Origin: Escherichia phage REP2
Length of the DNA stretch: 64,000 bases
Sequence record: OQ174501.1
Strand: one strand, 5' to 3'
Shown here one piece after another: positions 20,634 to 22,490 of this stretch. A program made the translations under genes and the position numbers. Positions within the stretch are counted from its first letter, which is position 1. Every line of letters starts with the position of its first letter. The notes under the pieces were generated by a model that was given only the letters and a program-made list of their open reading frames with translations, was not told the origin of the DNA and did not search any database.

Positions 20634-21217
20634 TGATTAAATTGGTATTCGCTTATTCTCCAACTAAAACGGTCGAAGGCTTTAATGAATTAGCATTCGG
20701 TTTAGGTGATGGTTTACCATGGGGACGAGTTAAAAAGGACCTCCAGAATTTTAAAGCTCGTACCGAAGGTACAATTATGATTATGGGTGCTAAAACGTTT
20801 CAGTCATTGCCTACATTACTTCCAGGTCGTAGTCATATTGTAGTGTGTGACCTTAAGCGTGATTATCCTGTAACTAAAGACGGCGATTTAGCACATTTCT
20901 ATATTACTTGGGATGAGTATGTTACCTTAGTAGCCGGTGGACGTATCCAATTATCTAGTCCTAATACAACTTTTGAAACGTTTATCGATTCCAGCGAAAA
21001 TCGCATCAGTGTAATTGGCGGGCCTGCTTTGTTATATGCTGCATTACCTTATGCAGATGAAGTAGTTGTTTCTCGCATCGTTAAAAGGCATCGTGTTAAT
21101 TCAACGGTTCAATTAGATGCAAGTTTTCTTGATGATATAAGCAAGCGTGAAATGGTTGAAACTCATTGGTATAAAATAGATGAAGTAACAACCCTTACGG
21201 AATCAGTATATAAATGA
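20633..21217 (+). CDS. frd: Dihydrofolate reductase
   Basis: 194 aa; [46 protein letters not shown]...; matches T4 Frd. Confidence 0.95.
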
Positions 21218-21219
21218 AA

Positions 21220-21627
21220 TAACACGTGGCGGAAATATGAATTTTAATTATTACCCTATTCTATTAGAAAAAGACGAGAAACAGCCAAAGTGGCAGGGTC
21301 CTCAGTTTATTAAAGGTGTCTATCAATTAGTAGTTCCTAAAGACAAGATTTATAGCAGTTGTTTCACTGAATCCGCTTGCAGTATTTTCGGTAATAGTTC
21401 TCCATATTGGAATTTTGACATAAAGCTGGATAGAAATATCGATATTTGGTTGAAAGCTATGGATATTGGTAATATCACGTTTGATGAGAATAATTATCAT
21501 ATTATTGGTCGCTTTTCCAAACGCGGTAAAGAATTATATTTCACGCCTGAAATTGAGAGAAAATTTGATGCTAAACCGTATTGATTATTTAGCTTCATAA
21601 AATGTATTATAATTTATATAAGGTACT
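21220..21627 (+). other. Inserted cassette at the frd/td junction, bounded by 8-bp direct repeat AAATGAAA
   Basis: AAATGAAA at 21212-21219 (containing the frd stop TGA and a vestigial ATGAAATAA start) and again at 21628-21635 (true td start); carries the 115-codon ORF. Confidence 0.55.
21237..21584 (+). CDS. Hypothetical protein encoded by the frd/td insert
   Basis: 115-aa ORF MNFNYYPILLEKDEKQPKWQGPQFIKGVYQLVVPKDKIYSS...; no motif recognised. Confidence 0.55.
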   Translation: MNFNYYPILLEKDEKQPKWQGPQFIKGVYQLVVPKDKIYSSCFTESACSIFGNSSPYWNFDIKLDRNIDIWLKAMDIGNITFDENNYHIIGRFSKRGKELYFTPEIERKFDAKPY

Positions 21628-21629
21628 AA

Positions 21630-22490
21630 ATGAAACAATACCAAGATTTAATTAAAGACATTTTTGAAAATGGCTATGAAACCGATGACCGAACGGGCAC
21701 AGGAACAATTGCTCTGTTCGGTACTAAATTGCGTTGGGATTTAACTAAAGGCTTTCCTGCAGTAACAACTAAAAAGCTCGCCTGGAATGCATGCATTGCT
21801 GAGCTAATATGGTTTTTATCAGGAAGCACAAATGTCAATGATTTACGATTAATTCAACATGATTCATTAATTCAAGGCAAAACAGTCTGGGATGAAAATT
21901 ACGAAAATCAAGCAAAAGATTTAGGATACCATAGTGGTGAACTTGGTCCAATTTATGGAAAACAGTGGCGTGATTTTGGCGGTGTAGACCAAATTATAGA
22001 AGTTATTGATCGTATTAAAAAACTGCCAAATGATAGGCGTCAAATTGTTTCTGCATGGAATCCAGCTGAACTTAAATATATGGCATTACCGCCTTGTCAT
22101 ATGTTCTATCAGTTTAATGTGCGTAATGGCTATTTGGATTTGCAGTGGTATCAACGTTCGGTAGATGTTTTCCTCGGTCTTCCATTTAATATTGCATCAT
22201 ATGCTACGTTAGTTCATATTGTAGCTAAAATGTGTAATCTTATTCCTGGAGATTTGATATTTTCTGGTGGTAATACTCATATCTATATGAATCACGTAGA
22301 ACAATGTAAAGAAATTTTACGTCGTGAACCTATGGATTTATGCGAATTACAATTAAAATTTCCAGATGAATTTGATGAATGGGACACAGAATCGCAGGTA
22401 TTTTGGTTGAGTCAATTTGCAAAGCCTCATAATTTTGTTCTTAACAACTATGAATCACATCCTCCTATTAAAGGAAAGATGGCGGTGTAA
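21630..22490 (+). CDS. td: Thymidylate synthase, uninterrupted (no group I intron)
   Basis: 286 aa contiguous, equal to the spliced T4 Td length; active-site region [11 protein letters not shown] present in one ORF. Confidence 0.95.

Follow-up and report, generated by a model that had tools for sequence, protein, structure and literature searches.

The 416-bp segment between frd and td of a T4-like coliphage carries the known accessory gene td.1

Organization of the frd–td interval

The window, the whole 64,000-nucleotide stretch of DNA analysed here, is a segment of a Tequatrovirus genome, and its frd–td stretch is 100% identical to that of Escherichia phage REP3. The interval contains the following features.

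20633..21217, + strand: frd (dihydrofolate reductase), 194 aa, ending VYK-TGA (ORF list; annotated as dihydrofolate reductase in the 100%-identical REP3)
21211..21225, + strand: left copy of the direct repeat, TAAATGAAA exact, TAAATGAAATAACAC imperfect (13/15 match to the td start region)
21214..21222, + strand: vestigial two-codon mini-ORF ATG AAA TAA, overlapping the frd stop (sequence)
21226..21236, + strand: final part of the spacer 5′ of td.1, GTGGCGGAAAT (junction comparison)
21237..21584, + strand: td.1, conserved small protein of 115 aa, PHROG 1928 (ORF list, tblastn, PHROG match)
21589..21620, + strand: promoter-like 32-nt segment (ttAGCTTCA, then TATAAT or TAATTT) in the td.1–td spacer (without counterpart in phage Shf125875)
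21627..21641, + strand: right copy of the direct repeat, TAAATGAAACAATAC, spanning the true td start (repeat comparison)
21630..22490, + strand: td (thymidylate synthase), 286 aa, without the T4 group I intron (ORF list; REP3 comparison)

The 3′ end of frd reads GTA TAT AAA TGA, followed by AAT AA, and the ATG of td lies 416 bp downstream of the vestigial ATG that overlaps the frd stop. An initial annotation of this DNA had described the same layout: frd ending in a vestigial ATG-AAA-TAA, td starting 416 bp further on, a 115-aa ORF at 21237..21584 and the octamer AAATGAAA at 21212–21219 and 21628–21635. All of these coordinates check out against the sequence and the ORF list, but the exact repeat is in fact 9 bp long, TAAATGAAA, at 21211–21219 and 21627–21635, with an imperfect extension to 13 matches in 15 positions (TAAATGAAAtAAcAC versus TAAATGAAAcAAtAC). 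The T4 record bears out two further claims, that frd and td overlap there as ATGA and that the 115-aa ORF is absent. Indeed, the T4 junction, gtatataaatgaaacaatacc, equals the window sequence minus exactly the 416 bp between the repeat copies, such that the repeat flanks precisely the segment missing from T4, as had been proposed. The Frd proteins of T4 and the window share 89.6% amino-acid identity.

The left repeat copy looks like a decayed td start, its third codon being TAA where td has CAA. The spacer at 21226–21236 appears to resemble the frd 3′ tail of metagenomic contigs L011 and L012 (window, ggcggaaatATG; L012, ggtgaaaaacGTG; L011, ggtgaaaagcgATG), a likeness read from short sequences that is suggestive of homology. 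The ribosome-binding site of td.1 probably lies within these 11 nucleotides.

Downstream of td.1, the segment at 21589–21620 may, judging by its sequence, function as a promoter; phage Lutter has an annotated promoter feature at the equivalent place. The promoter-like pattern of the td.1–td spacer shows no enrichment over chance, and a MotA-type middle promoter, whose pattern fits, was rejected on the same ground. No terminator or significant hairpin was found at the frd–td slot (spacer fold z = −1.6), and an Rfam search gave no credible match. Similarities of the td.1–td spacer to the td.1 paralogue and to the 68-aa gene described below are too short, and too confounded by the ribosome-binding site, to count as remnants of these genes. 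An exact 10-mer, GGTACTAAAT, occurs both just 5′ of the td start (21622–21631) and inside td (21720–21729, codons 31–34), which may reflect chance or templated insertion at a repair junction.

td.1 is known and widespread among T4-like phages

By its sequence, the 115-codon ORF is td.1 of phages T2 and T6 (RB32ORF229c, PHROG 1928), a gene already known and widespread among T4-like coliphages. The 'orphan' of the initial annotation is hence no orphan. The window protein is 100% identical to that of REP3 and 99% identical to td.1 as annotated in the T2H and T6 records (GenBank AY262132 and AY262134), and matches PHROG 1928 with E = 3e-36 over residues 4–111. Searches with tblastn located td.1 in 581 phage records, 362 of them at ≥90% identity (including T2, T6, RB32, RB51 and wV7) and the other 219 at <60%. 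The T2H and T6 gene occupies the same position as the window ORF, and no material difference separates them save the mosaic frd and td alleles on either side. A literature search on td.1, RB32ORF229c and the frd–td interval returned nothing relevant.

Homologues at ∼26–66% identity occupy the frd–td slot in Jiaodavirus (KPV15), Kanagawavirus (Q7622), Roskildevirus (Cronus), Marfavirus (Potts1) and four metagenomic T4-like contigs (L011, L012, L032 and L033); this placement between frd and td holds for the window and for every other context inspected. The family consists of proteins of ∼100–130 aa whose genes often overlap both neighbours and are sometimes accompanied by a tandem paralogue. Such a second copy adjoins the td.1 homologue in Q7622, Potts1, L011 and L032: hhalign gives probabilities of 96–98% for the paralogues of Q7622 and Potts1, that of L032 (P0036) is itself a family match, and that of L011 was likened to the Q7622 paralogue by eye. 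In Cronus a structural relative sits beside the td.1 homologue. An exhaustive profile search of 1.84 billion protein cluster representatives yielded only 42 matches; long Ig-repeat proteins that surfaced in the exhaustive HMM search look spurious and were set aside. One NCBI-sourced protein of 195 aa (P0016), from a Klebsiella-phage-like contig, has last ∼40 residues nearly identical to the C terminus of the KPV15-type homologue, preceded by an unrelated N-terminal part of 150 aa; this fusion is a rearrangement or an assembly artefact.

Alternative alleles of the frd–td slot

Three alleles of the slot occur within Tequatrovirus: ∼350 records have td.1, ∼133–135 an unrelated 68-aa gene and 32 the empty T4 type. 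Among the T-evens these states are mutually exclusive, with td.1 in the window, T2, T6 and RB32, the 68-aa gene in others, and an empty ATGA junction in T4, RB69 and TH44. A 101-nt probe of the T4 junction matched 514 records and was fully covered in 381, usually as two pieces ∼416 nt apart, while a 44-nt probe found the T4-type junction in only 32, about half of them T4 stocks and the rest RB55, RB59 and ten other isolates. At this junction it is T4, the reference phage, that is unusual. The initial annotation had named an ancestral ORF, common to T4 and most relatives, as the alternative to an insert; most relatives do carry the gene, but T4 does not.

The ATG of the 68-aa gene overlaps the frd stop in ∼133 records. 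Beyond Tequatrovirus, the same gene is found at 98.5% identity, unannotated, in Dhakavirus JS98, and a 68–69-aa gene lies directly 5′ of td in Potts1 and L011. The JS98 copy, at 4214–4420 on the minus strand of locus L034 (NC_010105), is missing from the RefSeq annotation, and the Potts1 copy (locus L015, 3761–3964) is annotated there as only 42 aa. The gene also has homologues at ∼43% identity outside the T4-like phages, in Phapecoctavirus. RB69 (Mosigvirus) and TH44 (Gaprivervirus) share an empty ATGA junction with the common sequence TATAAATGAAA.

Phage Shf125875, classified as Mosigvirus, carries td.1 at 93% identity in a more compact arrangement. Its Frd is 205 aa long, reading through the vestigial stretch (aaaaatgaaatag) (…IYKNEIATGGKYEF) and overlapping the td.1 start, and its td.1–td spacer is only 13 nt. 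Relative to Shf125875, the loss of two A's from an A-run has brought a TGA into frame in the window, which has also gained the 32-nt promoter-like segment (21589–21620). Exchange of three alternative alleles among T-even genera is neatly illustrated by this slot.

Significance of the direct repeat

Statistically, the direct repeat is only moderately unusual. It was picked post hoc in the initial annotation, and short exact repeats are frequent in the region: the window has eight occurrences of the 9-mer, and the 651 nt around the site contain eight families of direct repeats ≥8 nt long. A match of ≥9 nt between two random 30-mers has P ∼0.003, and 12 matches in 16 positions at fixed register P ∼1e-4 per random pair. 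When the two junction regions were compared by gapped local alignment, the 13/15 repeat was the sole match, and 2.2% of random genomic pairs of matching lengths scored at least as high (P = 0.022 in this unconstrained test). What makes the repeat meaningful is its register, since its copies coincide with the frd stop and the td start, respectively.

The td.1 protein

td.1 is a real, strongly conserved accessory gene of T4-like phages. Between the window and Shf125875 it has 38 nucleotide and 8 amino-acid differences, giving a dN/dS of 0.054 indicative of strong purifying selection. It is nonetheless dispensable, since T4 and RB69 lack it. A confident AlphaFold2 model built with 16 homologues (pLDDT 87, pTM 0.80) shows a small fold, mostly beta with one helix. 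Family members range from neutral to mildly basic and have many aromatic residues, and their invariant positions include Q16, W19, G27, N79, G91, F93, K95, G97, F102 and P104.

The initial annotation recognised no motif in this protein, and our searches agree. Pfam, NCBIfam and PADLOC scans gave no match, those of Pfam and NCBIfam being empty at E ≤ 10; a PDB sequence profile search returned nothing below E = 0.03; BFVD held only uncharacterised proteins of T4-like phages; and we found no catalytic motif. OB-fold proteins recur among the sub-threshold fold matches, a weak lead only. Small OB-fold nucleic-acid-binding proteins share with td.1 a small size, a beta-rich structure, a mildly basic character and conserved residues of aromatic and basic type. 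With low confidence, we suggest that td.1 may be a small non-enzymatic binding protein made alongside Frd and Td before replication.

A more specific proposal, which we think unlikely as it stands, is that td.1 and its tandem paralogues form an uncharacterised fold tied to the phage thymidylate cycle, acting either as an adaptor or regulator of Frd and Td in the dNTP-synthesising complex or as a counter to a host defence that targets this pathway. If true, such a role would explain why even very divergent T4-like phages keep the family in the frd–td slot, often in translational coupling with both neighbours, although T4 can dispense with it. Strongly selected, with no recognisable fold and inside a nucleotide-synthesis operon, td.1 could merit a knockout.

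Origin of the td.1 cassette

Several records in the BASEL collection, including AdolfPortmann and TadeuszReichstein, label the protein a 'putative homing endonuclease'. A free-standing homing endonuclease gene, or the remnant of one, would spread by cleaving genomes that lack td.1, and the sharp presence/absence polymorphism beside td, a known homing target, is in keeping with this. The T-even seg and mob genes and the I-TevI intron in td likewise show presence/absence polymorphism by genes of nucleotide metabolism. Unlike these, however, td.1 shows no sign of a nuclease: neither a domain or motif (GIY-YIG, HNH, LAGLIDADG or others) nor a nuclease-like fold was found, Pfam, NCBIfam and PADLOC gave no match even at E = 1–10, and the protein has a mere 115 residues. 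The true HNH endonuclease lies 3 kb away, inside nrdA. Moreover, the 97–99% nucleotide identity to AdolfPortmann is that of the genome background, with no conversion tract, and the presence of td.1 is independent of the td intron. Homing is hence highly improbable as the origin of the cassette, and the label is unsupported.

Equally little credence attaches to a transposon-like element with a 9-bp target-site duplication. A 9-bp direct repeat does lie exactly at both edges of the 416-bp segment, but td.1 is its sole ORF and no transposase is encoded; near the ends, the best inverted repeat (18 nt, AT-rich, 78% complementary) is one of nine such pairs in 651 nt, the level expected by chance; and in every phage examined the gene family keeps to this single slot. 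There is some likeness to the modular shuffling of accessory genes of T4-type phages by way of short repeated cassettes (PeSLs) and mini-circles (Arbiol et al. 2010, PMC2839356), in that the non-essential td.1 comes and goes as a whole, bounded by short direct repeats. Recombination between these could in principle release a 416-bp circle able to re-integrate at a single-copy site of the T4 type. PeSLs are, however, promoter-plus-stem-loop cassettes in a classical hyperplastic region, whereas the td.1 repeats are a translation-start region and the slot is inside a conserved operon. A strong sigma-70 promoter and a terminator stem-loop at both borders, as expected of a PeSL, were not found here: a promoter-like site is present on the right only, and there is no terminator.

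The td.1 family is clearly an old resident of the frd–td slot, which argues against a simple insert. Our main reading, to which we give a probability of about 55%, is that td.1 was re-introduced into the T-evens by recombination into the frd/td overlap. Most likely it would have come from a related phage of the L011/L012 type and entered a junction with a pre-existing frd/td overlap. With the break a few codons inside td, the td start would have ended up duplicated, a decayed version (ATG AAA TAA CAC) remaining after frd and an intact one preceding td; the td-like vestige seen behind frd fits this. From then on, ordinary homologous recombination in the conserved flanking genes frd and td would have passed the cassette on as an allele that is either present or absent. 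The two copies of the repeat could also allow its renewed loss, and the empty T4 allele would be either the original state or a secondary excision. In the trees, Frd groups L011, L012, Q7622 and Potts1 at 98%, with the T-evens together at 94%, and Td groups L011 with Q7622 at 99%, whereas td.1 groups the window, Shf125875, L011, L012 and P0005 at 97% to the exclusion of Q7622 and Potts1. As the td.1 split is incompatible with the Frd and Td trees, the conflict shows horizontal exchange; its direction is only moderately supported in these neighbour-joining trees on ∼115 residues, whose deep nodes are weak (12–72%). Pairwise identities are in line with the trees, td.1 being 63% identical between the window and L011 and 51% between L011 and Q7622, versus 47% and 62% for Frd. 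The GC3 of td.1 is 30% versus 24–25% in the flanking genes, and overall GC is 40.7% in L011 and L012 versus 36% in the window.

Vertical descent with differential loss is possible, though we place it below even odds. The slot of a Tevenvirinae ancestor would have held td.1, its paralogue and the 68-aa gene, from which lineages lost different parts, T4, RB69 and TH44 losing all of them through microhomology deletions at ATGA or TAAATGAAA. This accounts for homologues holding the same slot across many genera and for the three-gene slot of L011 and Potts1. ATGA overlaps at most L011 gene boundaries would make precise whole-gene deletion easy, and the T4 junction is the exact product of recombination between the repeat copies; the repeat could equally well have mediated a deletion in T4. 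The T4 type is also rare (32 records, ∼12 distinct phages), and 50 nt on each side of its junction are 100% identical to some phages that bear td.1. The modest significance of the repeat and the weak deep nodes of the trees count against re-introduction, as do further observations: the compact, native-looking arrangement of Shf125875, in which Frd overlaps td.1 as in L011 and L012, fits long residence, and td.1 and the 68-aa gene each retain a neighbour from the three-gene slot of L011 and Potts1, as differential deletion also predicts. On the other hand, vertical descent conflicts with the td.1 versus Frd and Td trees at 97–99% bootstrap, needs at least three independent identical deletions or else allele flow, and leaves the td-like sequence behind frd to coincidence (P ∼0.01–0.02). 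The empty junctions of RB69 and TH44, together with the trees, lend some support to the initial proposal of an insertion at the td initiation codon; a transposon-style target duplication finds none, there being no transposase and no convincing terminal inverted repeat. The outgroup argument is weakened by the movement of frd alleles between T-even genera, JS98 Frd being 87.6% identical to that of the window. Insertion is hence plausible solely as old inter-phage recombination and not as transposition. Whichever history holds, segregation of the cassette now proceeds by homologous recombination in the conserved sequences on either side.

The finding is an ordinary one of little consequence, which corrects the idea of an orphan insert and flags the unsupported homing endonuclease label.

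Mosaicism and neighbouring genes

The 87.6% identity of the window Frd to that of Dhakavirus JS98 implies that frd and td are mosaics of alleles common to several genera. Compared with AdolfPortmann, the 3′ two-thirds of td (21800–22490) and a patch of frd (20900–21000) are 63–85% identical against a background of 96–100%. We considered a recent sweep of td.1, suggested by its ∼98% identity where frd and td show 85–90%, and rejected it: in a sliding window the 96–100% is the genome background, and frd and td contain local divergent patches. Upstream of frd, the stretch 19600–20630 differs strongly from AdolfPortmann (48–74% identity, with many gaps), and this variable accessory-gene region includes a DUF7247 ORF at 20032–20391.

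Downstream of td, nrdA is in two pieces, 23045–24478 (477 aa) and 25224–26213 (329 aa), split by a 236-aa ORF at 24524–25234 with HNH and I-HmuI NUMOD-like domains that is annotated as a homing endonuclease in REP3. The first nrdA piece of Yersinia phage fPS-2 is likewise 1434 nt long, and the split nrdA of the window resembles that of phage Aeh1.
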